A stretch of 60,862 nt of DNA, from sequence record MW749009.1. One strand, written 5' to 3'. Positions 5,839-48,600 of the stretch are shown in pieces. The notes below the pieces were generated by a model. That model was not told the DNA's origin. It made no database searches and saw nothing but the letters and a program-made list of their open reading frames with translations. Both the position numbers and the translations under genes were made by a program. The stretch is from Bacillus phage vB_BspP_Dartukuta. Each line of letters begins with the position of its first letter. Within the stretch, counting starts at the first letter, position 1.

Positions 5839-5913
5839 TTATCAGCTCCATCTAATAAGTAAAAATTAGCGCCCAGCTTGCTGAGCGCATGCTAAAACAG
5901 AGTTGGCTAGGCG

Positions 5914-24320: not shown

Positions 24321-24372
24321 GCGGTCAGGGCTGGCTGGTATTACCGGCTAGCCCGTTACTGGAGTGAGTGAC

Positions 24373-26782: not shown

Positions 26783-26796
26783 CGAGAGGTTATTTC

Positions 26797-28683
26797 ATGC
26801 CACACATGCCAGGAAATGGCGCCATTTTCGGCGTTATCAGCGAGGACGGTCTAGCAAAGACTGGCTTCCCCGTGAGCCTTGTTGATAGAACCACGGGTAA
26901 ACTGGTGAGCCGACAACTGTCTGACGGAAACGGCGCGTTCGCCTTTAACGGCCTCAACCAGAACACCAATGACTATCAAGTGATTGGGCAGGACGAAGAC
27001 GGCGAAACGTACAAGAATGCGGTGATTCGTGACCGCATCCAGCCAGTGCCCGGATACCAAGGCGCAAGCTACTGGGGCAACTGGCGCTACGCTGCAATCC
27101 AGTACGGCGTCCACTCTTTCTATGACGGGCAGTTGGCCCACAACTATCTGGAAGACACCCAGTCTGGGACTGTGCCGTCGTACTCGGCGGGACAAGCACC
27201 GCGATTCCGATATTCTCCTAATAACTCGACAGGAACAGTAACGAAGCCAGTCATGGATGTTTCCATCACACAGGGAGACCCGAGCATTCCGGCCACTACG
27301 TTTGATTTGAGCACAATGACGGCCTACGGGATGACAAACCCCGCAGGAACCGTAGAGATCGACGCATTTGGAAGTCCTGCAAAGACCGCGCTAGAGCTGG
27401 TTGCTGACTTTTCTACACTTTCTTCGGAGTCTGGGTGGGCATCTTTCACTCATTCGTTATCGCACGAAAACGAAGACCCGAACACTGGAACCAATGTACC
27501 CCATGTAATTGGCCTTTACTACAACATCTCCGGGAAATACCTTCGCATTCAGGTTAACAACACCGGCGATTACCATCTACGGGCTGAACATAGAGTAAAC
27601 GTCGGCGACTTCTCAATGGAGGAGTATCAAGGCGTACATCATGTAGTGGCCTCCGCTGTGTTCGGCGAGGCGCTTAATTTGTACATCGACGGCGTTCTCG
27701 CTCATACGTTTTCTATGGTCGGAATGTCAGCCGCTTTGCGTTATAGAAACAACTCCGCTTATGGTCGAGTAGGCGGAACCCACATCCATGGGGAATACAA
27801 CCAAACCTCTAGCTCTAATCAAGGCATACATATCGCGCGTGGAATTTCTGGAAAGGTGGCTCTTCTCGCTTGGTATTCCAATGCGCTGGATGACGTTCAA
27901 GTTTTGGACTTACACCAAAGCCTAATGGTCGGGGCTGAGCCGAAGCTAACAGGCTTCGCTAAGGAAGTTTTCGCGGACCACCCCACCTTTTACGTCCGGC
28001 TGAACGAGCCAACTGGAACGACTTTCGTTCGGGACATGCTGCGCGGCCATACATCCGACGTTTTTGCCGGAAGGGTCTACGGCGAGACGCTCATGTTGCA
28101 GCCCTCCATCGTCGTTGGCGGCAACACCTTTGGGTTTAACGGTTCGTCATCCGTGCGCTTTAACTACAGCTCCCCGTCACTCTATAACTCCCAAGGGTTC
28201 ACGGTGCTGTGCGTCTTAAAGCCGGAGTTGGAAACTCCAGCTGCGACCGAGACACTGCTTAGATGCACAAACACTAGCGAGGCATACAATCACGGTGTAA
28301 TACTACAAAGGCTGGTCAATGGATGTTTAGGACTGATCTACCGCGCAGGCGGTTTGAACGAACAGATTGATTTCACTGTCCCTATTGGCACGGAGTCCAT
28401 GTGCTTAGCTGCCATTGCGATTGACAAAGTTGCCTTAACTGCCTCGCTTTTCATAAATGGCGAGTTAGCTGAGCAGCAGGTTATTGTTGGATCGTACATC
28501 GACCGACCGCCAAGCAGGGTATCTAACGCCATGTACTATCAGGCGATGATTGGAGGGATCACATCGGATACTGGGGGCATAACATCCCCTTACAGAGGAC
28601 TTCTCGGCGAACTTGCTGTCCTGCAAAACCCTATCACCGCTCAGCGGGCCAAGCAGATCTTCGACGCCACGCAGGTGGTGTAA
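26797..28683 (+). CDS. Tail-associated protein with two LamG/ConA-like lectin-type regions (628 aa), inferred
   Basis: ORF track 26575..28683; ATG at 26797 with GAGAGG upstream. Beta-rich N-terminus; two segments reminiscent of concanavalin-like lectin domains. Fold unverified. Confidence 0.45.
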   Translation: MPHMPGNGAIFGVISEDGLAKTGFPVSLVDRTTGKLVSRQLSDGNGAFAFNGLNQNTNDYQVIGQDEDGETYKNAVIRDRIQPVPGYQGASYWGNWRYAAIQYGVHSFYDGQLAHNYLEDTQSGTVPSYSAGQAPRFRYSPNNSTGTVTKPVMDVSITQGDPSIPATTFDLSTMTAYGMTNPAGTVEIDAFGSPAKTALELVADFSTLSSESGWASFTHSLSHENEDPNTGTNVPHVIGLYYNISGKYLRIQVNNTGDYHLRAEHRVNVGDFSMEEYQGVHHVVASAVFGEALNLYIDGVLAHTFSMVGMSAALRYRNNSAYGRVGGTHIHGEYNQTSSSNQGIHIARGISGKVALLAWYSNALDDVQVLDLHQSLMVGAEPKLTGFAKEVFADHPTFYVRLNEPTGTTFVRDMLRGHTSDVFAGRVYGETLMLQPSIVVGGNTFGFNGSSSVRFNYSSPSLYNSQGFTVLCVLKPELETPAATETLLRCTNTSEAYNHGVILQRLVNGCLGLIYRAGGLNEQIDFTVPIGTESMCLAAIAIDKVALTASLFINGELAEQQVIVGSYIDRPPSRVSNAMYYQAMIGGITSDTGGITSPYRGLLGELAVLQNPITAQRAKQIFDATQVV

Positions 28684-31600
28684 ATGACATTCCTCATCAC
28701 CGGCGTCACGCTGGGCGATGTCAGCGCGACAGGTGATGATTCTTACGTCAGCAATGCCGCTGACTTAGTTCTTGTGGCGTCATGGGATAGTGCGGCTATA
28801 CCTGCTCCCGTGGTGTCACCAGACGTCTCAGGCGCTTTGGTTTCGCTGGATCTCTCTGAATCCTACAAGTCGCCCGCTGGCTCTGCAGTTTCACTGACGC
28901 TCTCAGGAGCGCCATTTGTCTACGCTGGCGCTGTGGATTCCGCGCGATTCGGCATTCCTACCGCAGGCAATGCTGCGCAGGCCGCATATCCCGTAGGATG
29001 GGAGTCTTTTGCGTATGGGTTTACCACTCGCGCGACATTTGATCTGAGTTCGCGCGAGCTGCCGCTTAGCATCGAGGGCGCCTACACCTCGCCGACTGCG
29101 CTCAACGTGGGGCTGTATCTGGACGGCAAGCCGTTAGTGTCGGCTGCCTCCATTGGTGATCAGACGGAGTTCGGCTCTGCTTCGGTGGAATCGCCATTGT
29201 CGGCGCGTCCATTTGGCTTTGATGCCTCCGACCACTCTATTCCGCGCGTCCACCGAGGCGAGACGGGCGCGCGGGTAGAGCTGAGGCTGGATGCTCACTA
29301 TCAATCCCTTCATGGGTCATCGGTCAGCCTGCCGCTATCCGGTGCGCCGCTGGTGCTGGCATCTGCAGGTCTTCAGCAGTTGTTCGGCCTGCCGTCGGTG
29401 GCCAACGCATCGCAAGCATTCTACCCCTTCGGGTTCGACTCTACTGGCTTTGGCTATCGCACACGCGCGTTTCGATCTGACTTAGATAGTGGAAACCTGT
29501 CTCTCAGTTTGGAGGGCAACTACGCCCCTCCTAACGCTGCGGCCATTCAGCTGCTTTGGGCGAGCGAGTCAAAGACGCTTTCGCCCTTCGGCTTCACGGG
29601 CTTGCAGCTCGGTGAGCCTATTGTTCGGGTTGCTCAGCTCTTTCTTGAGGGGATACAGCCGCCTGCGGATGCGGTACCGGCTCCGAGCCTCAAGAACCTC
29701 AATCGCACCGTCTCACCACTGGGCACCGACTTTCTTGAGTCTGGCGCCCACCACTCGGTTGCCAATAGCGGTGTGGCGGTTCGCCCAACTGGGATTTCGC
29801 ACCCTGGACTTGGCGCTCATCGAATCTGGAACTGGCGTCAATACCGCAACATGCAGGGCTTCAACACGGCTCTGTATGGGCGCCCATACCTCCAAGGTGG
29901 TGTTAAGTACATCACGCCAAGTGGTGTCAGCACGACTGTCTATGGTCGCCCGTCTGTCGTCAATACTACAGCCGATCAGTTTGTCAGCCTTGCTGGTCGG
30001 ATAGCTCCTCCATGGGCTGGTAGGCCCGCTGTATCTCCGCGCACTGTGTTCCCCTATGGCGTACTGGGCGCTACATTCGGATCAGCGTTCGTACAGTTCC
30101 CGCCAAGGCCGGTAGGTTGGTTATCAAGCGCGTTTGGCTATCCGGTTATTGAGGATAAGACCAAGTATCTAGCTGCTGGAGGGATAGGTGCTGATGACCA
30201 GTACGGCTATCCAGTAGTTTTCGATCCAACAATTAAGGTTCTTGTTTCGTCCGTTATTCAGTCGGGCGTGTTTGGTGACACGGCAGTTAAGAACAACCGC
30301 TTTGTTCTGAATGCTGAGGGCATTGATAGCGCAAGCGTTTCGCCTTGGGCAACGCTTAGGAACACCAGAAGACTTACCTATGCGAGCGGCTGGCGCTCAC
30401 TTGATTTTGGCGAGAGCAGTGTTACCAATAAAACGCCAAGCATTGCACCAGTAGGCTTTGATGCGCTAAGACTGCCGAACCCAGCAGAAATAGGTATCAG
30501 CTACGCAGTTAGGTTGATCTACACAAGCGGGATCAACAAAGGCGGCATAGGTGTCGCGACTCTAACCAAGACGCCAGAGATTGCACCGAAAGGCATAGCT
30601 GCGCCTACTTTGGGTTTGACGACTGTATGGCACAGAGTAAGAACACTAGAAGTTCGTGGCGCAGACGCATACAAGTCCGGCAGTGCAGATGTTTGGTTTA
30701 GGTATCGCTTCGTACAGCTACAAGATCGCGGCTGGAACGGCTCAGCATACGGCGCGCCAAGGCTAGAACACGAACACAGGGCTATCAATGGTCTAGGAGC
30801 AGACAGCCTAAGATCAGGCACGCCTTATATCGGGCTGAGAAATAGAACGATTGCGCCTGAATCAGCGTGGGAAGACTTTGCTACAGGCCACATGGTTGGT
30901 GGTCTACGGTTCTTGCGCCCAGTTGGATATGAGGCTACGCGCTGGGGTACGCGGATCATTCCTGAAATAACTCAGGTCTATGTAAGAGGGTTTTCAAACA
31001 GCTACGGCATACCCACGCTGAGGAACAATACTAATCTTATCCTTCCGGCAGGTATCACGACAACGCCTGATCCAGTAGATCAATGGGGAACCGCAAAACT
31101 CCACAACAGCAGGCAGTTCGTGTCAATGTTCTATGACGTTGATAGCGAATTAAACCCTCCTAAGTGGTCGCAGTGGACGCTGATTGAGAACAGGAATAAA
31201 TACTTAGCTACTACTGGCAACGAGATGTTGCGTATCGGTAGATCAGTAGTCGCCAATGCTGCTACAGCAGTTATCCCCTCCGCAATACTTGCGCCGGAGT
31301 GGAGTAAGGCGAGTGCTTCAGGGATGGTCGCGTTCCGTATAAGACCGCTAAACCTTGACTCTATCGAGCCGCCATACTTCAGCGGGTGGCTAAATATATA
31401 CAACGATGCCCCTGTGCTTGGATCTAAAGGTTTCAATGCAGAGAGCTTCGGCGTATCAGTTGTTGAAAATACGCGCAGGACATTTAAGTTCCAAGGCTTT
31501 GATAGTGCATGGTTCGGCTACCCAATGGTTGCGTTCAGGATCCGGCACATTAAGTTTGAGGGTCGCTACACGATTGCGCCACCGCCTATCAGGATGCAAG

Positions 31601-33066
31601 AGGTCAAGCTGTACACACGCTACCTAGATCCTATTGGGTACGAGACTTACGGTTCTGGCGCTCAGTCGCTAAGTATCCACTGGACGCTAATCACACCACG
31701 ATGGACTCATCAAGACCTGTTTGGAGAACCTAGAGTTCATAACGTAACACCTGAAGTGAAAACGCGAGGCAGGGTATCCGAAGAGTTCGGTAATGCTTTC
31801 GTGCGCCTTGAATGGAGAGAACTAATCACTCATGAAGCATTCACGCAGATCATCCCTAAGCCTATCGTGGCTTTCAGGGATCGCGCTATCGAAGTGAATG
31901 GCATCCGGTCAATGGTATTCGGTGACAAGCTAAAGGTAACGAAAACAGGCGCGCCACCTTACTCAGACCAGCTAATCATTCTTGCTAATGCTGACGTTAC
32001 TAAGAACGGTTACGGGATTGAGGTGCCTAAAGATCAGGTTCCTAAACCAATCATGAATCAACAGGTTCTATACCATCGCTCTGATTCAGTGATGACAAAA
32101 TTCGGATCACTTAGAATTACTGCCAACATGATTCGTGTTGAGCCAGGATTCCAAGAGCTTAGCGTAGGTGAGCCTATGGTTAGCTTGAAGATTAGAACCG
32201 TTGAGGTTAAAGAGTTTCCAGGAGATCAGATTTTTCAGCCATCAAAGCCGCGCCTGTCACCTCATACAATCTGGGCTGTGAAAGAAGCGCCTGCGCAAGC
32301 TAAGGTAAATCACACCTCTTCTTCATTGCACTATGTTGATGAATATCCTGGCAGTGGATGGAGAAAGGGATTTGGCAGGCCATCCGTGTTTCTTTATACC
32401 GGACTTGTTAATACAAGAGGGGCAAACCATGCTGCTGTAGGTAAGCCCAGTGCTTATAACGCCTTGTCTTATATCAGGCCGAAAGGCATAAAATTAGACC
32501 GTTATGGGTGGCACACAGTACCTGGCGAGCAAATATCTGAGCAGATCAATTCATCCGATACAATGGTATTTGGTATTACAAAAGTTGGCAGGCCGCCTTA
32601 TGTTGGGCCACAAACAATAGCTGCGAAGGGTTTATCTGCTATTTTTTGGGGAGCTAGCGACATACAGCTATTACACAGGCAAATCTACCCTAGAGGGCAC
32701 TTGTCTATGGCAATGGGTACAAGACGTGGAGGAGATAGTCCGTATATGTGGCAAGGGTTGAGAATAGGCGAGCTGATGCCGACCATACCTGAAGGTTTTT
32801 CAGCTGAGCTAATCGGTGAGCCTTGGCTTTCATTTAGAGTTCGCGAAGTTAATCCCGATGGGTACGATGCGTTTATATCTGATTACGACCTAACTGCTTT
32901 CTCTAGGCGCATGAAAGTATTCCGTAAAGAAGTACCTAGCAGCGTAGATCACATAAAACCTGAAGGCTTTGATGCTTTTGCTTCGAGTGCTTCTGACGTT
33001 AAACCATTAGCGCACTTTATCCGGCCTGATGGAAACAGCGACCAATATCGTAAAGGAGCCTTCTAA
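28684..33066 (+). CDS. Large repetitive virion protein (1460 aa) with >20 F/Y-G-x-P motifs
   Basis: Recurrent FGYPVI, YGRPYL, FGEPRV, FGRPSV, YGIPTL motifs at ~30-60 aa spacing; start overlaps the upstream stop (TAAATG). Confidence 0.55.
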   Translation: MTFLITGVTLGDVSATGDDSYVSNAADLVLVASWDSAAIPAPVVSPDVSGALVSLDLSESYKSPAGSAVSLTLSGAPFVYAGAVDSARFGIPTAGNAAQAAYPVGWESFAYGFTTRATFDLSSRELPLSIEGAYTSPTALNVGLYLDGKPLVSAASIGDQTEFGSASVESPLSARPFGFDASDHSIPRVHRGETGARVELRLDAHYQSLHGSSVSLPLSGAPLVLASAGLQQLFGLPSVANASQAFYPFGFDSTGFGYRTRAFRSDLDSGNLSLSLEGNYAPPNAAAIQLLWASESKTLSPFGFTGLQLGEPIVRVAQLFLEGIQPPADAVPAPSLKNLNRTVSPLGTDFLESGAHHSVANSGVAVRPTGISHPGLGAHRIWNWRQYRNMQGFNTALYGRPYLQGGVKYITPSGVSTTVYGRPSVVNTTADQFVSLAGRIAPPWAGRPAVSPRTVFPYGVLGATFGSAFVQFPPRPVGWLSSAFGYPVIEDKTKYLAAGGIGADDQYGYPVVFDPTIKVLVSSVIQSGVFGDTAVKNNRFVLNAEGIDSASVSPWATLRNTRRLTYASGWRSLDFGESSVTNKTPSIAPVGFDALRLPNPAEIGISYAVRLIYTSGINKGGIGVATLTKTPEIAPKGIAAPTLGLTTVWHRVRTLEVRGADAYKSGSADVWFRYRFVQLQDRGWNGSAYGAPRLEHEHRAINGLGADSLRSGTPYIGLRNRTIAPESAWEDFATGHMVGGLRFLRPVGYEATRWGTRIIPEITQVYVRGFSNSYGIPTLRNNTNLILPAGITTTPDPVDQWGTAKLHNSRQFVSMFYDVDSELNPPKWSQWTLIENRNKYLATTGNEMLRIGRSVVANAATAVIPSAILAPEWSKASASGMVAFRIRPLNLDSIEPPYFSGWLNIYNDAPVLGSKGFNAESFGVSVVENTRRTFKFQGFDSAWFGYPMVAFRIRHIKFEGRYTIAPPPIRMQEVKLYTRYLDPIGYETYGSGAQSLSIHWTLITPRWTHQDLFGEPRVHNVTPEVKTRGRVSEEFGNAFVRLEWRELITHEAFTQIIPKPIVAFRDRAIEVNGIRSMVFGDKLKVTKTGAPPYSDQLIILANADVTKNGYGIEVPKDQVPKPIMNQQVLYHRSDSVMTKFGSLRITANMIRVEPGFQELSVGEPMVSLKIRTVEVKEFPGDQIFQPSKPRLSPHTIWAVKEAPAQAKVNHTSSSLHYVDEYPGSGWRKGFGRPSVFLYTGLVNTRGANHAAVGKPSAYNALSYIRPKGIKLDRYGWHTVPGEQISEQINSSDTMVFGITKVGRPPYVGPQTIAAKGLSAIFWGASDIQLLHRQIYPRGHLSMAMGTRRGGDSPYMWQGLRIGELMPTIPEGFSAELIGEPWLSFRVREVNPDGYDAFISDYDLTAFSRRMKVFRKEVPSSVDHIKPEGFDAFASSASDVKPLAHFIRPDGNSDQYRKGAF

Positions 33067-34256
33067 TGGCAGATTTACCACTGATGCCGCTTGCCGGTAT
33101 GAACAATGTAGCTGAAGAAGCAGCCTTAATGCGTGGCGGCGACTCGCCAGCAGTGTTTGCGCGAGACGTTGTGAATATCAATGTGTCGCCAGCAGGAAAG
33201 GCAATGCTAAGAGACTGCGCGCACCGCGTTAGCACGCTGAAGATCAGGGAGCTATGGCAAAGCCCGTTACATCGAGAGTCGTTCGGTGCGGTTGGTGACG
33301 AGTGGGGAAAGGTTGGCGCATTAAGCTGGTCGTTTGATCCTATGGTCAGTATCGGTAACGGTCCAGTGTCGCATGAAGTGTTGAACAACCTTGTTTGCGT
33401 GGCTGGCGACTCCGGCATATTTACCTATGACGGCAGAACTTCTCAAAAGCTAACGATTGAAAACCCACCCGCACCACTCGTGATAACTGGAAGCGGCTCA
33501 ATGGTTGCTGGTATGTACGGCGTGTCGGTGGCATGGCTTAGGGGGGCTACCGAGTCAGCACCTTCTGCAATCGCGTTTACGGACGTTCCTGATGAAGGCG
33601 GTATGCAAATTATTCTGCCGATGTGCCTTGATGACAGCGTGACAGGTGTGCGGCTGTACATGACACGCCAAAACGGTGGAGAGCTTGCAAGAGTCGGTGA
33701 TTACCAGATTGACGCAACAACCGTTGATATTCCGGCTTTGCCTAAACTTGGCGCGCCACCGCAGTTTCTTAATAAGTCGCCAATGCCTACAGGTAAGTAT
33801 CTGAAGTATTGGCGAGGCCGTCTGCTTACTTCCCGCGCCAATGTGCTTCGCTTTTCTGAGTCTATGGCCTATCACTTGCACGATGAGCGCCACGGGTTCG
33901 TACAGATGCCACAGCGCATAACCTTTGTTGAGCCTGTGGATGGCGGGATATGGATTGGCCAAGTCGATCACGTTGCCTTCCTCGAAGGCGCAACACCTGA
34001 CGAGCTTGTCATGCAAAGAAAGACCGCTTGCGCACCAGTGGCCGGTAGTTCAATTCAAGTGCTGGCCGACACGATTGGTGGCGAGCTTTCACAGGGCGGA
34101 TCTGCCACTGTGTTATGGCTCGCAGAGAATGGTTATGTAGCTGGCACAGCAAGCGGCCAAGTGGTTGAAATGCAGACAGGCGTTATGAAAGGTATCACCG
34201 CAGAAAACGGCACTTCTGTAGTGCTGGATCGCAGAGTGCTTACCGCTGTAACCTAG
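33066..34256 (+). CDS. Hypothetical virion protein (396 aa)
   Basis: ORF track; overlapping start (TAATG) with the upstream gene. Confidence 0.45.
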   Translation: MADLPLMPLAGMNNVAEEAALMRGGDSPAVFARDVVNINVSPAGKAMLRDCAHRVSTLKIRELWQSPLHRESFGAVGDEWGKVGALSWSFDPMVSIGNGPVSHEVLNNLVCVAGDSGIFTYDGRTSQKLTIENPPAPLVITGSGSMVAGMYGVSVAWLRGATESAPSAIAFTDVPDEGGMQIILPMCLDDSVTGVRLYMTRQNGGELARVGDYQIDATTVDIPALPKLGAPPQFLNKSPMPTGKYLKYWRGRLLTSRANVLRFSESMAYHLHDERHGFVQMPQRITFVEPVDGGIWIGQVDHVAFLEGATPDELVMQRKTACAPVAGSSIQVLADTIGGELSQGGSATVLWLAENGYVAGTASGQVVEMQTGVMKGITAENGTSVVLDRRVLTAVT

Positions 34257-34865: not shown

Positions 34866-37472
34866 ATGCACGAACCACGCCCTCACGGCCTAGCGGCTGT
34901 GGGCGGCGAGCCAACAGAAGAAGACTCTGCAGCGGTAGAGCTTCTGGCGCGCCGTCTAACAAACCTACGAAATCTATCAGGCGTTGACAGCTTGAGGATG
35001 GTTCGTGAGTTACCGAGTGGCGGTTACGTTATCGCTCAAAACATGGGCGGAGTTTTCAAGGCGATCACACATAAGCCAGAAACACCACCAGAACCAGAAC
35101 CGTTTGACGGCATTGCTAAAGATTACATACCGATGCTGTTTAGCGGCGTTGTTACTAAGGCTGTTCTTCGTGACGATGAAGGTCTTGGCATAAAGCTGAC
35201 TGAGCAGTGTAGACGGCGTATCGCTGGATACAAATCTAAAAACTTACCGGCAAAACAAGTTGAGCTGAAGCGCTTTAGTATCGAATATCACACAATGTGT
35301 GATGAATTAAAGCCTTTGAACCTTGGTCCTTTCAAGTACACGCAGTATGTTGCACAGAGGCCAACATGGTACAGCGGTGCTATGGCAGAGGTAATGCAGA
35401 TCGTTGGTGGCTATGGCAGGCAGGATCTGGAAGATCTGCCAGACAGTCGGATTGAGAGATCTAGGCTTGCACTGCCTAATAAAGTACAACGGAAAATTGC
35501 ACTCGACCTTGGGAATTTAAGACTACCAGGGTATACCGGATTACCTGACAAAAAGGGTCAGTTCAGGTACGACTACAAGTTCAACAATACAAATGGAGTT
35601 GGCTTTGACGAGCTGGGCAAGCCTTGGCTGCTTAGAGTTAGTTCTTCTGGCGTACATGCGATGCCGCTACCAATAGTTCCAGCAACAATCACTAACGCGT
35701 TCAGAGAGTGGATTGAAGAAGTTGGGGACGATGAGATTCTGAAGATTCTTGACCGTTTTGGCGGGATGCCAAGCGGAGAGGGTTTTCCTATCTTATCTAA
35801 AGACTTTGAGGCATGGCGCAGAGCTGGTGTGATTATTAAGGTGTGCGATACATCGGACTTCTATCAACACATCATGTATTCGAGCGCTATAGGCTGGTCT
35901 TTCAATAGCGAAGGATCTGAAGGCTATAACACTTGTTACGACTACTACGATGAAGAAGGCTTAGGTTACGGCCTTGCCTACAAAATGAGCCTTACGCTTG
36001 GTTCTGCAAAGAACAGTGGGAAATTGCCGCCATCATTCGACCTTGATTCATCGGAGGAGGCAAGAAGACTTGATGCGTACCTTAGCGGTCTTTACAGGCA
36101 GATGGGTGACAACGATTCTGAGCACTTGGCGATCAAGTATAAGTTAAGGCGAGTGCCCGTGTCCGAGATATTGGCGCGCGCTCGTGAGGGCGTTTCAGGT
36201 AAAGCCGAGCTTGATTACTGGAATCGAAAAGAACTTGATCCAATAGCTGTTCATTCAGGAAGTGTCTCAGAAGTGTCTAGGGGTTATCTGTATAACGGCG
36301 CAAAGTTCATGTTTCAGCCGCAGATAAAATACCCTGAGCCTTTCGCTGGCGGTTGCGTATCCCATGACTTCCTACCACTAATCAACGGGCGCTATAAAGA
36401 GTCGTACCCGAACAGTGACACAATAATGTTCGGCTACTACGCTGGCGATGAGTTAAAGGTTGTTAAGTATTTCAGAGAGCGCGGAAGCTACAAAAAAGAA
36501 GTTGATAGTGATTTTGAAGAGTGTATGACCGTTGGCTCATGGACTGAAGTAGTTACCCAAGGTAGCACGCAAATACTAGGCAATTTCTACACAAGCGACA
36601 TTGATGAGAGGCAAGAGGTCGCAGACACCACTACTACTACCAAGATAAGAGGCATAGACAAGGGTTACGACAGGGAGCCTGCTTTTTCTTTTGACGCTTT
36701 CTTCTCGATGTGCGGCTCTATGTGGCGGAATAGGTACTTTGAGCGCCAAACTGAGACGTTCAGGACAGAAGGCAACTGGCTAGAAGTAGCGGTTTGTATC
36801 CCGTATCTCGATAGGAATGCGCTAATACATGCTAAGCGTTCAGGAATAACAGGATCGCTGAAAACAACGGGTAACAGCCTGCTATCAGTAAGGGACCCTA
36901 ATAGTTATAGGTATTTCACTTACGATTTTGTTATGCACTGGGTAGGTTGTAGCACAGAGGGCAATGCTGGCTACGCCCCTAACGTCAATCCGTACCCTAG
37001 AGACGGTAACCCTGTTTGGGTGACTGGGTATAACTATAATCCTGGTGGTTGCTCCGACTTTGCTGATCAGGGCGACTGGGTAGGAGGGCTTCCTTCTGAC
37101 TACACATGGCTTATTCATCCTAACCGTAATGAGTGGCGCTTTAGTGGAGGTGGTGGCGCACCAGTAATTAAAAGGTACTCGACAAGCGTAAAAGGGGAGG
37201 CGAAAACCGAAGGCGACTTGAAGTATAGCGGCGCTTCCTCTGAGCAGCTAATAAACAAGGAAATCCCAAATAATATGTATTTCCTTGGATCACCCGATCC
37301 TTACGTTGGTGTGTTCTACCGCGATGGCTGCAAGAACCAGTTTGGCGACTCTGAATACGCAAACATTTCGGAACCTGAGTCTGCTGGTAGCCCATACAGA
37401 AAGCGCTGGGGGCATAGCTCGTTGGTCGATAACAAGTCAGCGCACCACTTTATAGGAGTTATCAATGAGTAG
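34866..37472 (+). CDS. Large virion protein (868 aa), aromatic/Gly-rich
   Basis: ORF track; in-line with the structural module; no family recognised. Confidence 0.5.
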   Translation: MHEPRPHGLAAVGGEPTEEDSAAVELLARRLTNLRNLSGVDSLRMVRELPSGGYVIAQNMGGVFKAITHKPETPPEPEPFDGIAKDYIPMLFSGVVTKAVLRDDEGLGIKLTEQCRRRIAGYKSKNLPAKQVELKRFSIEYHTMCDELKPLNLGPFKYTQYVAQRPTWYSGAMAEVMQIVGGYGRQDLEDLPDSRIERSRLALPNKVQRKIALDLGNLRLPGYTGLPDKKGQFRYDYKFNNTNGVGFDELGKPWLLRVSSSGVHAMPLPIVPATITNAFREWIEEVGDDEILKILDRFGGMPSGEGFPILSKDFEAWRRAGVIIKVCDTSDFYQHIMYSSAIGWSFNSEGSEGYNTCYDYYDEEGLGYGLAYKMSLTLGSAKNSGKLPPSFDLDSSEEARRLDAYLSGLYRQMGDNDSEHLAIKYKLRRVPVSEILARAREGVSGKAELDYWNRKELDPIAVHSGSVSEVSRGYLYNGAKFMFQPQIKYPEPFAGGCVSHDFLPLINGRYKESYPNSDTIMFGYYAGDELKVVKYFRERGSYKKEVDSDFEECMTVGSWTEVVTQGSTQILGNFYTSDIDERQEVADTTTTTKIRGIDKGYDREPAFSFDAFFSMCGSMWRNRYFERQTETFRTEGNWLEVAVCIPYLDRNALIHAKRSGITGSLKTTGNSLLSVRDPNSYRYFTYDFVMHWVGCSTEGNAGYAPNVNPYPRDGNPVWVTGYNYNPGGCSDFADQGDWVGGLPSDYTWLIHPNRNEWRFSGGGGAPVIKRYSTSVKGEAKTEGDLKYSGASSEQLINKEIPNNMYFLGSPDPYVGVFYRDGCKNQFGDSEYANISEPESAGSPYRKRWGHSSLVDNKSAHHFIGVINE

Positions 37473-38622
37473 TTATCGCGATGATTCGCATGATATAGCG
37501 GTTGCAAGCGACAGCACATGGGTAGGCTTGACCAGTATTATTGAAGATACGGCTCAGGCAGTTGCTACGATGATCGTGTGCATCGGTGTTTTGCACGCTG
37601 ATAGCGCGGTGGCTAGTGACCAGGTTATTGACCGTTCAAGTCACATGATTGTCGAGCAGGCGCAAGCAAGCGATACCGTCACCGATCACCTTTTAAGTAA
37701 GCAGCTTGTTATCGAAAAGGCAAAGGTAAAGGACGGCGCGACAGGTAGGCTTCGCACACTGCTAGAAGATTCTGCGGTCGCTTCAGATCTTGTGTTTGAC
37801 AAGCAGCTCAACATCATCGTCGAGAGAGCTACGGCATCGGACGAGGTGACTGGCCAGCGGCGCGCTAAGTCTCTAGTCGTTGATAAGGCTCGCGCATTCG
37901 ACACATTGGTCAACCGTTCAAGCGTGCTTATTGAAGACGCTGCCACTGCTAACGACTGGGCAGTCGGAAAGCTAAAACGCAAAGACCTTATTGCTGAAAT
38001 CGCTACGGCTGGTGATTTGGTTGTCGATGACCATCACGCTATTGCACCAGTTATTGTTGATCGTGCTCGCACCAGCGATGAAGTAGTTGATCGACTTTAC
38101 GCCAAAGACCTGATCAAAGAAGTCGTTGTGGTCGAGGACGAAGCCTTGTCTATCGGTGGCGACTACGGCCAGGCATGGACGGCAAACGCTGGCAACTGGG
38201 CAATGAGCCGCTATGCGCCTTACTCTTTCCGGCGCTTGGCGGTTGTCGATGGCGTTCTCTACGGGCTTGCTGATGATGGCGTATACGCGCTATCTGGTGG
38301 CGTAGAAGAGATCCAAGGCAGCGTGACTACAGGGAAACTTGACGTTGGCGGTGGTGGCTTGGTTCATCCTGTATCTGCCTACCTTGAGTACGAGCTTGAA
38401 GGCACTGCAGAAATGGACGTTACCACTACGCAATCAGGCTTGGCGCAGACATTCACCTACCCACTCGCTGCAGAGGTTGCAAACGAATTGACCAATGGCC
38501 GGTTTATCTTCGGTCGTGGCTTGCGTGGCCGGCACTTTAGCTTCACCTTGCGAATCAAGGGGCTTGCCGGCTACATAAACGATTTAAGCGTGACTTCCAC
38601 GCCTACGAAAAGGAGAGTGTGA
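37465..38622 (+). CDS. Internally repetitive protein (385 aa)
   Basis: Degenerate ~22-aa repeats of the form [IV]-[IV]-[ED]-x-A-x-A-S-D-x-V-x-D (e.g. IVEQAQASDTVTD, IVERATASDEVTG, IVDRARTSDEVVD). Confidence 0.5.
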   Translation: MSSYRDDSHDIAVASDSTWVGLTSIIEDTAQAVATMIVCIGVLHADSAVASDQVIDRSSHMIVEQAQASDTVTDHLLSKQLVIEKAKVKDGATGRLRTLLEDSAVASDLVFDKQLNIIVERATASDEVTGQRRAKSLVVDKARAFDTLVNRSSVLIEDAATANDWAVGKLKRKDLIAEIATAGDLVVDDHHAIAPVIVDRARTSDEVVDRLYAKDLIKEVVVVEDEALSIGGDYGQAWTANAGNWAMSRYAPYSFRRLAVVDGVLYGLADDGVYALSGGVEEIQGSVTTGKLDVGGGGLVHPVSAYLEYELEGTAEMDVTTTQSGLAQTFTYPLAAEVANELTNGRFIFGRGLRGRHFSFTLRIKGLAGYINDLSVTSTPTKRRV

Positions 38623-40514
38623 TGGGTATCGCACCGGATAGTATTCTTGGGGTGGCGGTTGATACCGTCACTAGCAAGATCAATGACCTAGATACGCTTG
38701 GCAGCAAGTACAGTTCGCTATTACAGAAGTCACTTGTAGATATTGGCAAAATAAAGGTTGCTGATGTTGAGGCCCCGCTAAGGCTTCAGCCGCCAGAAGC
38801 AGCACCGCCACCTGTGACACTTGGACCAATACCTGATTACAATCCACCGCCTTTAGCGCTGCCAGCTATGCCGGATGGGTTTAGTATTGATGACCTGTTA
38901 TCCGGCCTTGATATTGGCGACATGGATGCCATGCCGGACGCGCCCGTAGCAATACCGATAAACATACCTGACGCGCCTGATATGGCTGCAATTCCAGCAC
39001 CAGATCGACCAACAATAGATACGAATGTCGAAATACCGGACGCACCAAACATTGTCATGCCGGAAATGGAGGCGCTTGAGCAGATCAATATCCCTGATTT
39101 TGTTTTCCCTGAGCTACCTACGTTTGATGCTACGCCTCCAGACGCCAGCACTATAAGGGTGCCTGATGTTTTTATTAACTGGTCTGAGCCGGTCTATGCG
39201 TCAGAGGTTTTAGACGATCTAACGGCTAAAGTTAAAACCATGATGGCTGGCGGTACTGGCTTGCCGGCTGCCATCGAAGATGCTTTGTTCTCAAGGGCAC
39301 GCGAGCGTGACAGCGCAGAAACAACAAGGTCAGTTCAAGAAGCGGTTGATACATGGGCTGGACGTAACTTTTCTATGCCACCAGGCATGCTAGTGAAAGC
39401 TACCGATGTAGCGAGAGAGCAAGGACGACTCAAGGCAGCTGAACTTAACCGTGACATTCTGGTTGAGGCCGCTAAGTGGGAGATTGAGAGCATCCGCTTT
39501 GCCGTTGAGCAAGGTATGGCGCTTGAGCAGCTAACCCAGAACCTATACAACAACATGGCTAATCGCTTGTTTGAAGTGGCTAAGTTCCAAGCTGAAGCGC
39601 AGATCCGCGTATTCGATGCGCAGATAAGTCTTTTCAATGCTCAAAACGAAGCATTCAAAACGCTTGGCGATGTGTATCGGGTTAAGCTGGACGGTGCTAT
39701 AGCCAAACTTACGGCCTACAAAACTGCTATCGAAGGTCAAGTTGCGCTTGGCCAGATCAACCAGCAGCGTGTTGATGTATTTAAAGCCAAGCTCGATGCT
39801 GTTCAGTCAAACGTAGAAGTCTACAAGGCCATGATGCAAGGCGCTCAGGTTCGGGCAGATACCATTAAAACCCAATTTGATGCGTACAAGGCAGACGTTC
39901 AGGCATTCGCAGAACAGATCAACGCAGAGAAGGTTAAGTTTGACGCCTATGAAAGTCGGATCAAGGGCGAGCAGGCCAAGGCCGGAGTCTATGACTCACA
40001 GGCACGCGCTTACGCCTCAACTATTCAGGGGCTTGCAAGCAAGGCAGACGTTAAAGTAAAAGGCGCACAGCTCAAGATGGAGGCCGCGCGAGTTAAGGTT
40101 TCCAAGTTTCTTGCTGATGTGGATGCCTACAAGGCGCAGCTTCAAGCAAACCTTGGTGAGGTGCAATATGTGACAACAGCTTTCACCGCTCAAGTGGACG
40201 CATGGAAGTCACAAGCAAGCGCCAACGTAGCTGATGCTGAAATGCAAAGCCGCTTTGCCGATATGAATACGCGCACCGCAATTGCTTACTCTGAAATGCA
40301 GATGAGCGAGTACACGGCCAAGATGACGAACGCGGTACAGCAGGCGCAGATTGCACTTGATGCTGCAAAGGCTTTAGGTCAGTACACCGCTCAACTGGCA
40401 GCAGGCGCAATGTCTGCAGCTCATGTGTCGGCAAGTATCAGCGGCAGTGGATCTGCAAGCTCAAGCGACTCAAGAAGCACTAGCACTTCGACGAGCCATA
40501 ACTACAGCTATTAA
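38619..40514 (+). CDS. Coiled-coil-rich virion protein (631 aa), possible internal/ejection protein
   Basis: Pro-rich N-terminal third, long Ala/Gln/Lys-rich helical C-terminal half, Ser-rich tail. Confidence 0.5.
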   Translation: MMGIAPDSILGVAVDTVTSKINDLDTLGSKYSSLLQKSLVDIGKIKVADVEAPLRLQPPEAAPPPVTLGPIPDYNPPPLALPAMPDGFSIDDLLSGLDIGDMDAMPDAPVAIPINIPDAPDMAAIPAPDRPTIDTNVEIPDAPNIVMPEMEALEQINIPDFVFPELPTFDATPPDASTIRVPDVFINWSEPVYASEVLDDLTAKVKTMMAGGTGLPAAIEDALFSRARERDSAETTRSVQEAVDTWAGRNFSMPPGMLVKATDVAREQGRLKAAELNRDILVEAAKWEIESIRFAVEQGMALEQLTQNLYNNMANRLFEVAKFQAEAQIRVFDAQISLFNAQNEAFKTLGDVYRVKLDGAIAKLTAYKTAIEGQVALGQINQQRVDVFKAKLDAVQSNVEVYKAMMQGAQVRADTIKTQFDAYKADVQAFAEQINAEKVKFDAYESRIKGEQAKAGVYDSQARAYASTIQGLASKADVKVKGAQLKMEAARVKVSKFLADVDAYKAQLQANLGEVQYVTTAFTAQVDAWKSQASANVADAEMQSRFADMNTRTAIAYSEMQMSEYTAKMTNAVQQAQIALDAAKALGQYTAQLAAGAMSAAHVSASISGSGSASSSDSRSTSTSTSHNYSY

Positions 40515-42616: not shown

Positions 42617-45600
42617 ATGAGCTTTGAAGTTGATTTAGACAGCGCTGTTCTTGAGGGTGATTATTATGGAGATGATACTAGGGTCAAGCCTGAGAGCAGC
42701 AGTTCAGGCTTTAGCCCTGAAGCAGGTCCCGCAAAGCAGCCAGCTCCCTTTAGCGTTGACCTAGAAAGCGCTGAGCTAGACGAAAAAGCCAACCAGGGCT
42801 TTATTGGAACATTAGCTGACGGTGCAAAATCGGCAGGTAGAGCCATTAGCTCTACTTACAATACTTATACTGGCGATGGTCAAGCAGTTGTTGATAACGC
42901 CAAGGCTCAAGAACTGGCCAATGAAGATAAAAGCCAAGACATTAAAAACTTCCAGTCTGACTGGGCGGCAAATACGGGCGCAGGTACTGATGACGAAGTA
43001 GGCTTATGGGGTGCTATCAAAGGCACTGGAAAGGCAATTATTGATAACCCTCGTGGTGCCGCCCTTTCAGTAGTTGAGCAATTCCCTAATTCAGTTCCAG
43101 CACTGGCCGCAGGCTGGGCAGGCGCTAAAGGCGGCGCAATGGCAGGGGGCGCAGTCGGCTCGGCTTTTGGTGGTGTCGGCGCTGGGCCTGGCGCTTTAAT
43201 TGGTGGCGCCGCGGGGTTTGTTGGCGGCATGTTCCTCGGTAATACGTTGACCGAAACGGGCCATAAGGCGCAAGAGTACGCTGCCGATGGTGAGTTCACG
43301 CCAGATGAGCAGTCAGCAGCTATTACCGAGGGCGCGAAAAAAGCCGGTGTTATTACAGCCGTAGATGCGCTTACCTTTGCTGTCGGTGGCAAGGTTTCTG
43401 GATACTATCGGAAAACAGCAGAGTCAACAGTTGAGGCAGCTACTCGCAAAACACTGCTTGACGCTGGTGTTGATATTAGCGATACAGCAGCGCTTACTGC
43501 GGCAAGAGGTAGCCCACAAATTGCAAGCCAAGTTGTTGAAGCGCAGAAAAATGCGGCAAAGATTGCAGACAATCTACGCAAGCGCGCAGGCGAGGCAGGC
43601 GCGCTACTTACAATGGAAACAGTCGGCGAAGGCTTAGGTGAATACTTAGGCGAACTGGCAGCGACTGGACAAGCAAGCGTAGCAGAGGCCGTGCTAGAGA
43701 GCTTCTTGTCGCTAGGTCAGTCTGGCGTTCAGTCGATGTTTAACTTTGCCAAGGCGCGAGAGCGTTCGCTCACTGACCAAGAATGGATTGATGCGTCAAA
43801 CGGTATTGCGCCAGAAGGTATGGCACCAGAGCAAATGCCGGTTGCTGATGGTATATGGGATAAGCCAACTCCAGAAGCCAAGATCGACATGGGGCAGATG
43901 CAGGGTGGCGGCGTAACACCGACACCTGTATTTGACCCGCAAGACATTGATCGCAACCTTGCACCGACACCATCGCAGCAAATGGGAATTAACCCTGATG
44001 CTGGCCCACTTTCTGCTGCTGCAGCGCAGTCAGTTGATAGTGGCTTGTTTACAGGCGGGTTTACCCCACAAGCCGGAATTAACCAATCGGCACTTGAGCG
44101 CGAGGGCGTAACGCCGCCGCCAGTATTAGATACTGACCAGATTGACCGCAACTTAGGAAGTATTGATCCATTAACAGGTGAGTACATGCCTGCACCTGAG
44201 CAGTTAGGTCAGTCGAGTCAAGCGGGAGGCGCCGGTAATTATGAGTATGACCAATGGGGCAACCTAAGCAGCGTTGATGGCCGCACAGTAGATGGTTACG
44301 GTCAAAACCAACCACGCCTTGGTTTTAATAGTAAAGCCGAGCGCAGCACCGCGCCGTTATATGAAGTTGGGCCTGATGGTGTGGCGCGTCCATCTTCAGG
44401 AGAGGCGGCGCGGAGTAGAAAAGAACGTATTGACCTATCATCGCTGAAAGGTAGACAGCAAACCCAAGCGCAAAAACAGCCTGCTGCTATGCCAGAGCAG
44501 CGTAGTCCTGAACAGCAAGCGCAATCTATCTGGGATTCAATGAATACCTTTGAGCGTAACGCTGCAGCAGCAAATGTTCTTGGTATGCGCGGCGTACCGG
44601 CTAAGAATGCAGCCACAAAAGCATGGGATAAGCTAAGCTCTGAACAGCAGGCCAAGCTCGTAACTGGACTTGAGAGCCAGCAAGGGAAACGCTGGATAGA
44701 CCCTAATCAGAAAGTGACTGACCAAACTGGCCCTGTGCTACAAAACCGCGACCGCACAAGCCAAGACTCAATCAATCAGATGCGAAGCATCTCAAACAAT
44801 CCAGACTACAGCAGGTTAAAAACATCAGGCTTCTTGTCTGACGGTGCGCCTGTTGTTGTTGATGAGAATATTCAAATACCAGCGTCACAGATGGGCGTTA
44901 CTGATACTGCTTCTGCAGGAAACGAGCGCTTTAACGTGCAGTACGCAGTAGTTGAAGCCGACCAGTTAATGACCAGTAACAGCATTGACGGTACCACTAA
45001 CGCTGAATACCAGACAGGGGCTGCAGGTAAGGCTAGAGCAATTGCAGGTAATGGACGAATCACTGGCTTGCAATCAGCATGGGCTAAAGGCAACGCCAGC
45101 CAATACAAAGCCGATATGGCAGCCGATAGAATGCACGGCATTGACCCGGCCGTTATTGAAGGCATGCGCAATCCTGTTTTAGTCCGCTTATTGCCGCAGG
45201 ATCAGGTCACTGACAATATTGGCGACCTAAGCAACAGAGACGAGAAAGGCAGACTTTCGCCGGTCGAGCAAGCCAAAACAGATATGGGCCGCATTGACCT
45301 TGATAGCCTAAAGTTTACTGCTGAAGGTGCTATCGGTGGCGAAGCGATCCACCAGTTCCGCATGGCTCAACCTGCAGCTGAGCGCGTGAGTGAGGCAGAG
45401 GCACGGAAGCGACTGACTTCTGCTGTCTTCCAAAAGGCATACGGAAACGATCAGCTTACAGAAATCCAGTCTGGTGAAAGTGACGATGCCAAATCAATCT
45501 TATCAGCACTGGCACAAGCAGCCCCAAGCATGTCACGTCTTGAAGGAGCTGGTGAGTTTGATATTCGCCCACTAATCACGCAGGCAGGCATTGCGGCTGT

Positions 45601-48600
45601 AAACGCAGCGCGTAGAGGCACTAAACTTGCTGATTATGTTCAGCAGTCAGAAATGGGTATTGATCCAATGGTATACCCAATTCTGGAAATGATGCTGAAC
45701 GAGAATGGCAATATCCGTAGTAGCAAATACATCGGCGAACAGCTAACCAATATGGCAAAGTTGGCTTATGATGAAGCCAACTCACCTAGCTCAGATATGT
45801 TTGGCGAAAAACCCAAGCGTACAGCTGAGCAGGTTATTCAAGACGCGCTTACTGGAGTACAAGGTTATGGCCAAATCAATGACGGAAGAGGGCAAGAAAG
45901 TCTGGGGCAGCGAGGGCGGTCAGAACCTGATGCGCAAATGGTTGAAGGGCCAGAAGGCGGACGAGAGCGACCAGCAGACACTAGACAAACTGCACCAACT
46001 CAACCAGAAGCAGAGCAAGAACAACCCGCAGCAGTAGAAAGCAATGCGCCTGAAACATGGCGCAGTAACTACATTCAAGCCGCCAAGATTGCACGCGAAA
46101 AAGGCATTAATCCTAAGCAGCATAAAAAACTCGCTGACTTGGTTGAAGCTATTGATGCGTCAAACACTAAACCTGAAGCTCAAACACAGCTAACAGCACA
46201 ACAGAAGCAGGCTTCAGGCAGTGTAGATGGTGCAAAAGTCCATCTTAACAACAGCATTGACCTAACCAGCGCATTAGCTGCAATCGCACGCGGCGCACAA
46301 TTAAGCACCGAGCCAAACGGTGACGTTATTCTTAGTGGCACCAAGATAATTACGCTTCCAAAGCCGCCAACTTCTATTGATGAAGTTATTGCCCCGTTAG
46401 CCACAGCCTTACTAGAACAAATGCGAGCAGATGGCGTTTCTATGCCTGGCAACCCAGCGGACATGACGCGGGATCAGTTTGCTATTGCCTATCACTTTGC
46501 AAACATAATTCCAGAGTTTGAAATCAGCGGAGCAGATATTGGTGGCGTAGTCCAAGGATCAAGCCGTGGCTTAACAGTAGACTCAGACAAGCTATACGAC
46601 AAGATCATCGAGCAAGCCAAAGAGCAGGCTAAACCAGCCTTGGAGCTTAACCAGCAAACCGAAGAATCCTTAGCTAAAGATGCCAAACGATTAGAGCAGC
46701 TGCAGAAAGAAGAAGCTGCGCAGAAAGTCGCGCAGAAAGCTGCAGAAAGGAAACAGCGTGAGCGTGACGCAGACAAGGCCAGAGCGGACGAAGTGGTTGA
46801 TGACTTCCAGTTGGGGCAGTCTGCAGAAGAAGTAATGTCTGGCATGGGTGATATTTTTGCGACTGAGAGCAAGCCAGCAGATAAAGGCATTGCGTCTCAA
46901 GCCGATGACAGCCATGTCACAGTTGTTGATAACCAATACAACCCAAACCCTACAGAAGCGCAGAAGCAGGCTGGCAACTACAAGAAGGCTCACGTTAAAT
47001 TCCAAGGCCTTGATATCACAGTAGAGAATCCAGTCGGATCAGTGCGCAGTGGCGTAGATCCTGACGGCAATACTTGGTCAAATACTATAAAGCATGATTA
47101 CGGATACATTAAGCGCACTAAGGGCGCTGACGGCGACCATGTTGATGTGTTTATAGGTAAAGATACCGAAAGCGATAAGGTATTTGTAATTGATCAGCCG
47201 CACAAAAACGGTAAGTTCGACGAACACAAAATCATGCTCGGCTTTAAAGACCAGACGCAGGCCGTAGAAGCGTACAAAGGCAACTATCAGAAAGACTGGA
47301 AAGTTGGCTCTGTCACTGAAATGACTGTGGGCGAATTTAAGCAGTGGCTTAGCAATGGTGATACCACCAAACCGGTTGAGCCAGTCGCGAAGCCAGCAGC
47401 GCAAACAAAGCCAAGCCAAGCCATTGAGGACTTTGGTGAGAGGCTGGAAGGCGCACGCAAGGATTACGCCAGCAAACTATCTGACGCTAAAGAGGTAGAC
47501 ATTGCGACTGAGCCACTATCAAAGTCTTGGCCAGAGCCGAATTATCAGAAGTTGATTGACGGAGGAATGCCGCTAGAAACAGCAAGTATTGTTCGTGCTA
47601 TTCGTGATGAGATTCCAGTGAAGCCGCGCGCATCATGGCGACTGAAAGGATGGGTGCGACAAGTAAGCGAAATGCGTGATTTAGCCTTGAATTTGATGGG
47701 GGAAACAGCTACAGCTAAAGTGATTGTAGAGCAGATAAAATCTAATAAATCTTTATCAGACATAGTGAATCGTGCAGACCTGTACTCGGCAGTTGGGCAC
47801 GATAAAAGCCTAAAAGATATTAGTTTAAAACAAAGCTCTTACTCGTTGATTGATGGTGTTAAATACTCGCCACCGAAAGAGCTCTGGACGGTTGAAAGGC
47901 CGATTAAAAGCAGCGTAATAAGCAACATGCCCAGACGTATTGCGACAGCTGAAACAAGAGAGCAAGCGATTGCCAAATTCAAAAATGCGTATGCAACATT
48001 GGACGAAAGCAAACGTGTCAAGAACAAAGCAGTTGAGTTTGGGGTTTATACAGACAGAACCACAAAAGATGTTTTCATTGGCCGGAAGGTTGGCAAAAGT
48101 ATTGCTCGCGTAAAAACTGGATTCGAAACTGCTAAAGATGCAATTGCACACCTAAAGGAAAACTATGCTGCTCTTGAAGAGCGGTTTAACAAGATGAAGG
48201 ATACGCCCGATCATCGTAAGGCTGAAAACTCACCTAGAGTTGGCGTTGATCACCGAAATGGCGCGGATGTAACACCGGAGCAGTTCTCTGATACGTTCGG
48301 GTTCAGAGGGGTGCAGTTCGGTAACTATGTAGAGCAAGGACGTAGGCAGCAGGATCTAAATGAAGCCTATGATGCGCTTATGGACATGGCTGGCGTGTTA
48401 GGTATTCCAGCAAAATCTCTATCTTTAAATGGTGAGCTTGGACTAGCGTTTGGTGCTCGTGGTAAGGGTGGAAAACAAGCAGCTAAAGCGCATTATGAGC
48501 CAGATCAAATTGTTATTAACTTAACTAAGAAAAATGGCGCAGGCAGCCTTGCTCACGAATGGTGGCATGCGCTTGATAACTATTTTGGCCGCGAGCGTGG

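Follow-up and report, generated by a model that had tools for sequence, protein, structure and literature searches.

A diverged tandem repeat joined to a conserved beta-sandwich in a putative short-tail protein of an F116-related phage

Introduction

What might a phage protein do when much of its length is a diverged tandem repeat and all of its relatives are annotated as hypothetical? This question is raised by a gene at positions 37465-38622 of Bacillus phage vB_BspP_Dartukuta (MW749009.1; the whole 60,862-nucleotide stretch was analyzed and is called the window here), which encodes a 385-amino-acid (aa) protein. An initial annotation had credited this protein with at least seven tandem copies of a degenerate A-x-A-S-D-x-V-x-D repeat with a period of about 22 residues, likely a helical or beta-solenoid structural element. 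We observe that the repeat is real, that its units are 18 to 21 residues long and number 12, that unit number varies between distant phage lineages, and that the array is joined to a C-terminal domain related to a solved phage tail protein. Our preferred reading, to which we assign a probability of roughly 45%, is that this is a structural protein of the short tail of F116-like podophages, with a C-terminal anchor, a length-variable repeat stalk, and a docking N-terminal tip. The window is a tailed-phage genome with a terminase, a P22-type portal, and a major capsid protein followed by a tail module. Its relationship to Pseudomonas phages F116 and H66 is distant (about 54% aa identity).

A tandem repeat organized in three-unit super-repeats

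The open reading frame (ORF) list gives the gene exactly as first annotated, on the plus strand and with an ATG start, and we divide it as follows.

37465..38622, plus strand: repeat-protein coding sequence, ATG start, 385 aa and a TGA stop; counterpart of H66 gp57 (H66_0057), PHROG 12240 (ORF list and phrog_12240 match)
37465..37533, plus strand: N-terminal tip, aa 1-23, MSxYRDD..AVASDSTW, conserved; takes in degenerate unit 1
37534..37587, plus strand: degenerate unit 2, aa 24-41, hydrophobic, family consensus LLFGLxVxH (unit table and consensus)
37588..38106, plus strand: units 3-11, the nine clear ones, spanning aa 42-214; each has 18-21 aa, and together they form three 3-unit super-repeats of ~56-58 aa
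38107..38166, plus strand: degenerate unit 12, the junction to the C-terminal domain, aa 215-234, DLIKEVVVVEDEALSIGGDY, with weak profile similarity to the other units
38167..38619, plus strand: C-terminal domain, aa 235-385, predicted to be a jelly-roll-like beta-sandwich; its end is a basic tail that is conserved (..TKRRV)

Periodicity in aa 1-232 is significant by BLOSUM62 autocorrelation: lags of 38 (z = 5.0) and 56 (z = 5.9) stand out, each of them above the highest value from 2000 shuffles (4.64). The C-terminal 153 aa show no periodicity by this measure. A core A-x-x-x-D occurs at aa 12, 48, 66, 86, 104, 122, 142, 160, 180, and 201, with degenerate copies at aa 30 and 221. This gives 12 units with lengths of 18, 18, 18, 20, 18, 18, 20, 18, 20, 21, 20, and 20 residues (mean, 19.2; range, 18-21). 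The repeats are confined to aa 6-234, and aa 235-385 form a separate non-repeat domain. A unit hidden Markov model (HMM) recovers all 12 units in the query, which is circular since it was built from these units. Its yield is 4-12 units for independent homologues ~385 aa long and 12-16 for those of ~461-467 aa, as against 0-3 for shuffled sequences.

The consensus unit derived from 79 homologues reads x-L-V-x-[DE]-[ST]-A-x-A-S-D-x-V-[IL]-[DG]-x-L-x, with A at position 0 in 89% of cases, D or E at -2 in 90%, and D at +4 in 75%. In a comparison of family profiles, units 3-11 are mutually similar (scores of 0.5-2.0) and units 1, 2, and 12 are weak. Mean similarity is highest at a unit offset of 3, with unit 3 versus unit 6 scoring 1.98, near the self-scores. 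The units thus form a 3-unit super-repeat of ~56-58 aa, which accounts for the autocorrelation peak at lag 56.

At the DNA level, Tandem Repeats Finder returned nothing at a minimum score of 30, and find_repeats gave only short two-copy matches at unrelated spacings. In line with an old, diverged repeat, homologues that are only ~40% identical in this region conserve the units position by position. The initial annotation was right that a tandem repeat exists and that it does not consist of exact DNA repeats, its view of the repeat as old and diverged is supported, and the three strings it quoted are present at aa 62-74, 118-130, and 197-209. Its period of about 22 residues has to be shortened to 18-21, its seven or more units become 12 (nine of them mutually similar), and it had missed both the C-terminal domain and the tail-module context.

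As a separate observation from the family alignment (37465-38166), all units within one protein share a motif variant (such as D rather than E at -2, or A rather than V at 0), independent of the distance between units, and this correlation is lost between proteins. Either concerted evolution or a lineage-wide constraint could produce such a pattern.

Repeat number varies between distant lineages

The protein matches phrog_12240 over its full length (E = 1.4e-134; residues 1-385 versus profile positions 1-387). PHROG 12240 is annotated as of unknown function and all homologues as hypothetical, and therefore no mechanism can be transferred from these relatives. Pfam and NCBIfam hold no family for the protein or the repeat, a Pfam search at E <= 1 returning one noise hit only. 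We found 39 phage records that match at full length (coverage of at least 80%) with 39-56% aa identity. Pseudomonas phages account for 37 of them, mostly F116-like (F116, H66, LKA5, and others; genus Hollowayvirus where checked), the remainder being one Pseudoalteromonas phage and one Shewanella phage. The F116-like phages reach 100% coverage at 52-56% aa identity. The counterparts in H66 (gp57), F116, LKA5, phiC725A, Epa33, and related Hollowayvirus phages have the same 12-unit layout, C-terminal domain, and gene position, but their DNA has diverged to the point that only the last 40% of the gene, encoding the C-terminal domain, aligns (67-71% identity).

The best 120 hits form two length clusters, at 382-389 and 461-467 aa, and the longer forms carry ~79 extra residues after query residue 185-196, corresponding to four more units of the same motif. 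An exhaustive profile search with the N-terminal half collected 456 representatives, in which the same N-terminal tip and C-terminal domain occur in proteins of ~385, 443-446, 460-467, 498-512, 562, and 618 aa, that is, with approximately 12, 15, 16, 18, 21, and 24 units (15 units were counted by eye in a 445-aa form). The increments are mostly multiples of three, matching the super-repeat. Repeat-number variation among related phages, proposed at the outset as a check, is thus borne out over a range of ~12 to 24 units. Close relatives (79-96% identity) are all 385-386 aa long, and therefore the changes in unit number are old and fall only between distant lineages.

Conservation is unevenly distributed along the protein. 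Among homologues with less than 70% overall identity, mean identity is 67% in the N-terminal tip (aa 1-23), 28% in aa 24-41, 40% in the repeats (aa 42-234), and 70% in the C-terminal domain (aa 235-385), which holds most of the invariant columns. Within the tip, Y4, D6, and D7 are invariant, and M1, S2, R5, A12, and A14 are at least 90% conserved.

The C-terminal domain resembles tail-hub domains and is homologous to part of KPP25 gp06

AlphaFold2, run with a 79-sequence alignment, models aa 252-380 as an all-beta sandwich with a predicted local distance difference test (pLDDT) score of 70-90. Foldseek searches of the PDB with the C-terminal domain give weak matches in which nozzle and hub chains come first (HRP29 8es4_E, PhiM1 8vbx_A, P22 gp10 8eap_D, and Kp9 7y1c_Y); carbohydrate-binding module jelly-rolls and the satellite tobacco mosaic virus coat protein also appear in the same list. 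Against BFVD, Foldseek returns proteins named 'P22 Gp10, DNA-stabilising' and 'Stabilization protein', and tail-hub or nozzle proteins recur in three independent fold searches with this domain. The domain thus resembles one domain of the podovirus hub or nozzle (tubular tail protein B: Pa223 gp59, P22 gp10, Sf6 gp8, GP4, VP1, and T7-like gp12). In the Pa223 hub, a beta-propeller is accompanied by an apical insertion domain, and the latter binds the head-to-tail adaptor (bioRxiv 10.1101/2025.06.11.659172), whereas the 385-aa protein has no beta-propeller and AlphaFold2 shows the single beta-sandwich and no other fold. Sequence similarity between hub or nozzle proteins and the 385-aa protein was not found, and the structural matches span only ~130 residues.

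A profile search aligns aa 228-385 with residues 460-616 of a 620-aa chain named 'Structural protein' in PDB entries 26gp, 26la, and 44nx (E = 7.5e-5). The matched chain Q is gp06 of Pseudomonas phage KPP25, a 'virion structural protein' of phrog_26502 (PHROG E = 2.1e-8). The C-terminal ~155 aa of gp06 are homologous to our protein and its gene is equivalently placed, downstream of the hub homologue gp09 and of gp08, whereas its N-terminal 460 aa are unrelated and non-repetitive. Neither the unit HMM nor the N-terminal profile finds anything in gp06, and three similar units seen by eye at approximately residues 395-460 were rejected as unsupported by either. Since the match is limited to aa 228-385, it indicates a shared domain and not family membership.

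The KPP25 depositions comprise the capsid (26de and 44ny), the portal with gp09 (26fb), and gp06 (26gp, 26la, and 44nx), with gp04 also present in the gp06 entries 26la and 44nx. Three further proteins encoded in the window have homologous regions in KPP25: gp09 is homologous to a 396-aa hub-like protein (24% identity, E = 3e-13), gp08 to a 182-aa protein (32% identity), and gp04 matches residues 214-309 of a 631-aa protein (PDB 26la_X). These homologies, together with the unrelated N terminus of gp06, suggest that the beta-sandwich travels with the tail machine. On this sequence evidence, it appears to belong to a conserved tail gene set common to F116-like and KPP25-like phages in which the N-terminal part has been swapped.

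Position within the tail module

The genes of this module in the window run in the order 396-aa hub-like protein, 182 aa, 868 aa, 385 aa (the gene studied here), 631 aa, 662 aa, and a 4203-aa giant resembling internal virion protein D (IVP-D). The H66 genes follow the order gp54 (396 aa), gp55, gp56 (865 aa), gp57, gp58 (630 aa), gp59, and gp60 (the giant).

33066..34256, plus strand: 396-aa tail-hub-like protein, H66 gp54 counterpart and KPP25 gp09 homologue (PDB 26fb, with the portal); three genes upstream
34866..37472, plus strand: 868-aa protein, phrog_11362, unknown function; predicted to be translationally coupled
38619..40514, plus strand: 631-aa protein, residues 214-309 matching KPP25 gp04

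Hardies et al. call H66 gp54 'tubular tail B' (PMC4819975), and PHROGs labels the 396-aa protein 'head closure Hc3'. It is shorter than the solved hubs (446-520 aa), and its length is near-constant (391-399 aa, with one of 381 aa, in 120 homologues). A profile search with it, aimed at whether it lacks the accessory domain of the hub (the idea of a split hub), returned KPP25 gp09 and, below significance, a 'stabilization protein' (9vyg_M, E = 0.65), with no other hits.

Fold of the repeat region

The initial proposal of a helical or beta-solenoid fold could not be established. In the AlphaFold2 monomer from the same 79-sequence alignment, aa 39-242 have a pLDDT of ~23 and no secondary structure. 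The sole helix of the N-terminal half (aa 20-48, pLDDT below 50) covers degenerate unit 2, and there is none in aa 49-242. A glycine-serine-linked threefold copy of units 3-8, modeled with a gapless 36-row paired alignment, likewise reached a pLDDT of only 29 with no structure, although this construct is a single-chain prediction and the linker trick may simply not work here. Covariation was uninformative as well: pooled-repeat mean-field direct coupling analysis gives strong same-position couplings at -2, 0, +2, and +4 that are equal for unit offsets 1, 2, and 3 and are lost only when the partners are taken from different sequences. Because these couplings do not depend on unit offset, they carry no stacking signal and reflect a lineage-wide motif flavor and not contacts.

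With respect to composition, V, A, L, and I make up 41% of the repeat region, Pro is almost absent, and mean hydropathy is 0.494, compared with a folded/unfolded boundary of 0.434. This hydrophobic, Pro-poor composition is unlike that of a typical disordered region and argues against a conventional disordered linker. Across the family, hydrophobicity recurs most strongly every ~6.2 residues, giving three periods per unit, followed by 5.2 and 4.65, with 3.5 being minor. Chou-Fasman averages indicate short beta-prone stretches at -5 to -3 and +6 to +7, set apart by acidic or turn-like residues at -2, +4, and +8. This pattern is compatible with a beta-solenoid or triple beta-helix, wound with three sides in one chain or in intertwined chains; compatibility of this kind is not proof. 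The lack of helices in the clear units and of a dominant heptad signal argues against an alpha-helical rod, and the heptad periodicity and long helices of coiled-coil needles of the P22 gp26 type are not seen here.

PDB sequence searches found no solved structure matching the repeats. Trimeric fiber shafts, such as the triple beta-spiral of adenovirus and reovirus and the triple beta-helix of the T4 gp5/gp12 type, are built from short degenerate protein-level repeats of 15-20 aa. The 385-aa protein is like them in having degenerate protein-level repeats, a repeat number that varies between relatives, and an attached beta-sandwich, but no sequence or fold match between such shafts and the repeats was obtained, and the fixed Gly/Pro turn of triple beta-spirals is absent, since neither G nor P dominates any position (+8 is D in 35% and G in 24%).

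A possible tail stalk and its alternatives

Taken as a short-tail structural protein, the 385-aa product would most likely be anchored on the hub or adaptor region of the tail by its C-terminal beta-sandwich of ~150 aa. The ~12 diverged units of 19 residues (L-V-x-[DE]-[ST]-A-x-A-S-D-x-V-[IL]-[DG]) would then form a stalk acting as a length-variable spacer, which may have grown by block duplication of several units, often three, to reach the ~12 to 24 units of its relatives. The conserved 23-residue tip would lie at the far end and probably docks on a conserved phage component and not on a host receptor. The stalk itself probably becomes ordered only on assembly of the virion, where it would be beta-rich and either oligomeric or dependent on a partner. 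We prefer the C-terminal anchor because the beta-sandwich has diverged in step with the tail machine, shows the strongest conservation among phages of different host genera, and is retained where the N-terminal part is swapped.

Several observations weigh against this reading. H66 gp57 is not among the proteins of the H66 record verified by virion mass spectrometry (gp45, 46, 48, 52, 54, and 60), and a literature search found no structural paper for the tails of KPP25, phiR18, or F116 and none on KPP25 gp06. AlphaFold2 gives the repeats no fold, as monomer or linked trimer, and so we infer the extended, oligomeric stalk, as we do the anchoring end and the presence of the protein in virions of this family. 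In addition, neighboring proteins do not change in length with repeat number. The 868-aa protein holds steady at 861-868 aa in phages that differ in repeat number. Counterparts of the 631-aa protein measure 630-637 aa beside both the 385-aa and the 618-aa forms and ~893-901 aa beside 461-aa forms (phages vB_PalP_Y7 and vB_SbaS_Y11). A stalk bridging two fixed points is therefore unlikely, and we rejected the idea of a ruler or bridge whose length co-varies with a neighbor.

The conserved N-terminal tip fits the opposite polarity equally well. The protein would then be a classical tail fiber or needle anchored by its tip, with the repeats as a probably trimeric shaft and the C-terminal jelly-roll as a distal knob that binds a receptor or a glycan, comparable to the adenovirus fiber or the Sf6 needle knob. 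We consider this arrangement unlikely, since receptor-binding tips are normally the most variable part of such proteins, whereas here the C-terminal domain is the most conserved part (70%), holds most of the invariant residues, and is kept across phages of the host genera Pseudomonas, Shewanella, Pseudoalteromonas, and Variovorax. Moreover, it has diverged from its KPP25 counterpart about as much as the hub protein has, while the N-terminal part was replaced, and its best structural matches are tail-hub proteins.

A further alternative, which we regard as distinctly improbable, is an internal virion or ejection protein or an on-axis tail plug, stored partly unfolded, released at infection, and threading the tail channel with its N-terminal tip in the hub lumen. 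The position of the gene between the hub-like gene and that of the IVP-D-like giant is the one expected of an ejection protein, and Hardies et al. expected IVP-A/B in that region and had no candidates from the F116 group (PMC4819975). AlphaFold2 leaves 60% of the protein structureless, and the C terminus is basic and conserved (..KRRV), both as this alternative would have it. Known podovirus ejection proteins, analogues of T7 gp13-gp16, are, however, predominantly alpha-helical (PMC4819975), whereas the repeat units show no helices in AlphaFold2 and the ordered part is all-beta. The homologous domain of KPP25 gp06 was also ordered enough to be modeled in three tail entries, and the hydrophobic, Pro-poor repeats are unlike a disordered region.

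As for the fold, AlphaFold2 usually predicts solenoids well. A monomeric beta-solenoid, in which every 18-21-residue unit would be one coil of three short strands and the stack a rigid single-chain rod, has a suitable unit length (~18-25 residues per beta-helix coil), a hydrophobic period of ~6 residues, beta-prone stretches split by acidic or turn positions, and small Ala residues at fixed positions in its favor, yet it is hard to reconcile with a pLDDT of ~23-29 and absent strands in two designs, the lack of a Pfam match to hexapeptide (left-handed beta-helix; Hexapep), pentapeptide, or other solenoid families, and couplings no stronger between neighboring units than between units two or three apart, and we think it improbable.

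Returning to the tail stalk, we put forward a bolder version that we consider rather unlikely: the 18-20-residue [LV]-x-[DE]-[ST]-A-x-A-[ST]-D repeat may be an undescribed, widely reused tail stalk module that folds only in the assembled oligomer and has no solved representative recognizable by sequence. In F116-like phages the beta-sandwich attached to it would be of the hub type, provided in trans for the short 396-aa hub, which would thus be a split one.

The same motif in other phage proteins

The N-terminal profile also matches proteins of other architectures that carry regular arrays of the same core, with library-wide E values of 1e-17 to 1e-24.

P0231, L005:921-4214: 1097 aa, ~30 units 'LTETITMTDTLxKQxxRL', with a DNRLRE domain; the next gene is BppU_N (baseplate)
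P0243: 1821 aa, 'LSETASATDS...' units
P0257: 1161 aa, array of repeats with the same core
P0253: 533 aa, N-terminal region LamG-like by eye, no family match
P0259, L006:618-1862: 414 aa, choice-of-anchor R domain, on a phage-like contig

All five share the E-T-A-x-A-x-D core and an 18-20-aa period with the 385-aa protein. The P0231-type arrays differ in being far more regular, with up to ~30 units, and in being combined with other domains, including beta-helix-like regions, and not with the beta-sandwich of the family. No Pfam or NCBIfam model covers the repeat in these proteins, and PDB searches with P0231 and P0243 turned up nothing beyond hits to designed helical repeat proteins that fell short of significance (E of 0.09-0.7). 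The motif has the look of a stalk module that tail-region proteins of phages can reuse. Separately, in the uncultured phage genome MW202615.1 (Caudoviricetes sp., Manatee Spring) one ORF matches the P0231-type repeat array and the KPP25 gp06 C-terminal domain matches elsewhere, at 5802-6974 and 24279-24716, respectively, so that the two modules lie in different genes.

Gene boundaries and neighboring genes

The 385-aa gene sits inside a long block of genes on the same strand, and its flanks contain the following signals.

37454..37458, plus strand: ribosome-binding site AGGAG, 6 nt 5' of the ATG (read from the sequence)
Up to 37472, plus strand: 8-nt overlap ATGAGTAG between the end of the 868-aa ORF at 37472 and the ATG of the 385-aa gene (sequence and ORF coordinates)
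38610..38624, plus strand: AAGGAG and start of the 631-aa gene, at GTG 38619 or, more likely, ATG 38622 (sequence and ORF list)

The TGA stop at 38620-38622 overlaps the start of the 631-aa gene (GTGTGATG), with AAGGAG just before it. Start and stop codons overlap on both sides of the gene, and from this it is predicted to be translationally coupled to both its upstream and its downstream neighbor. Promoter- and terminator-like matches around the gene are at chance level, and a PHROG search with an antisense 98-aa ORF (37686-37982) gave no match.

In the 631-aa protein, the N-terminal third is rich in Pro, the long C-terminal half is rich in A, Q, and K and looks helical, and the tail is rich in Ser and Thr; the labels 'LigA' in one record and 'Rho guanine nucleotide exchange factor 11' in another appear to be annotation noise. 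The giant gene is a single 4203-aa ORF at 42617-55228 on the plus strand, the counterpart of H66 gp60 and F116 p60, which are IVP-D-like virion proteins with an insert resembling an S-adenosylmethionine methyltransferase (Hardies et al., PMC4819975). In F116-like records this ORF is split or shorter, Atpa001 having 1707 aa and a second ORF. Further upstream, a 702-aa protein (26575-28683, plus strand) has a concanavalin-A-like/Laminin_G_3 domain at aa 524-690 (E = 5e-7) and is a candidate receptor-binding protein. It is followed by a 1460-aa protein (28684-33066, plus strand; phrog_11272, unknown function) directly upstream of the hub-like gene, whose length varies widely among relatives, with 987 aa in H66 and Atpa001 and ~1385 aa in Y7 and Y11.

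Implications

The gene family was already catalogued, without a function, as PHROG 12240. The new elements are a defined motif, with its super-repeat and its series of copy numbers, and the connection of the C-terminal domain with tail-hub domains and with a KPP25 tail protein of solved structure. Nothing established is overturned, length-variable repeat-bearing tail proteins being familiar in phage biology. If the tail stalk reading is true, it would be the first functional placement of a conserved 'hypothetical' gene of the F116/H66 group, temperate, generalized-transducing Pseudomonas phages whose tail is structurally uncharacterized. It would also draw attention to a motif that has no Pfam or NCBIfam model, cannot be folded by AlphaFold2, and recurs in tail-region proteins of unrelated phages. 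The variation in repeat number between lineages would then offer a natural series in which stalk length can be set against adsorption or assembly.

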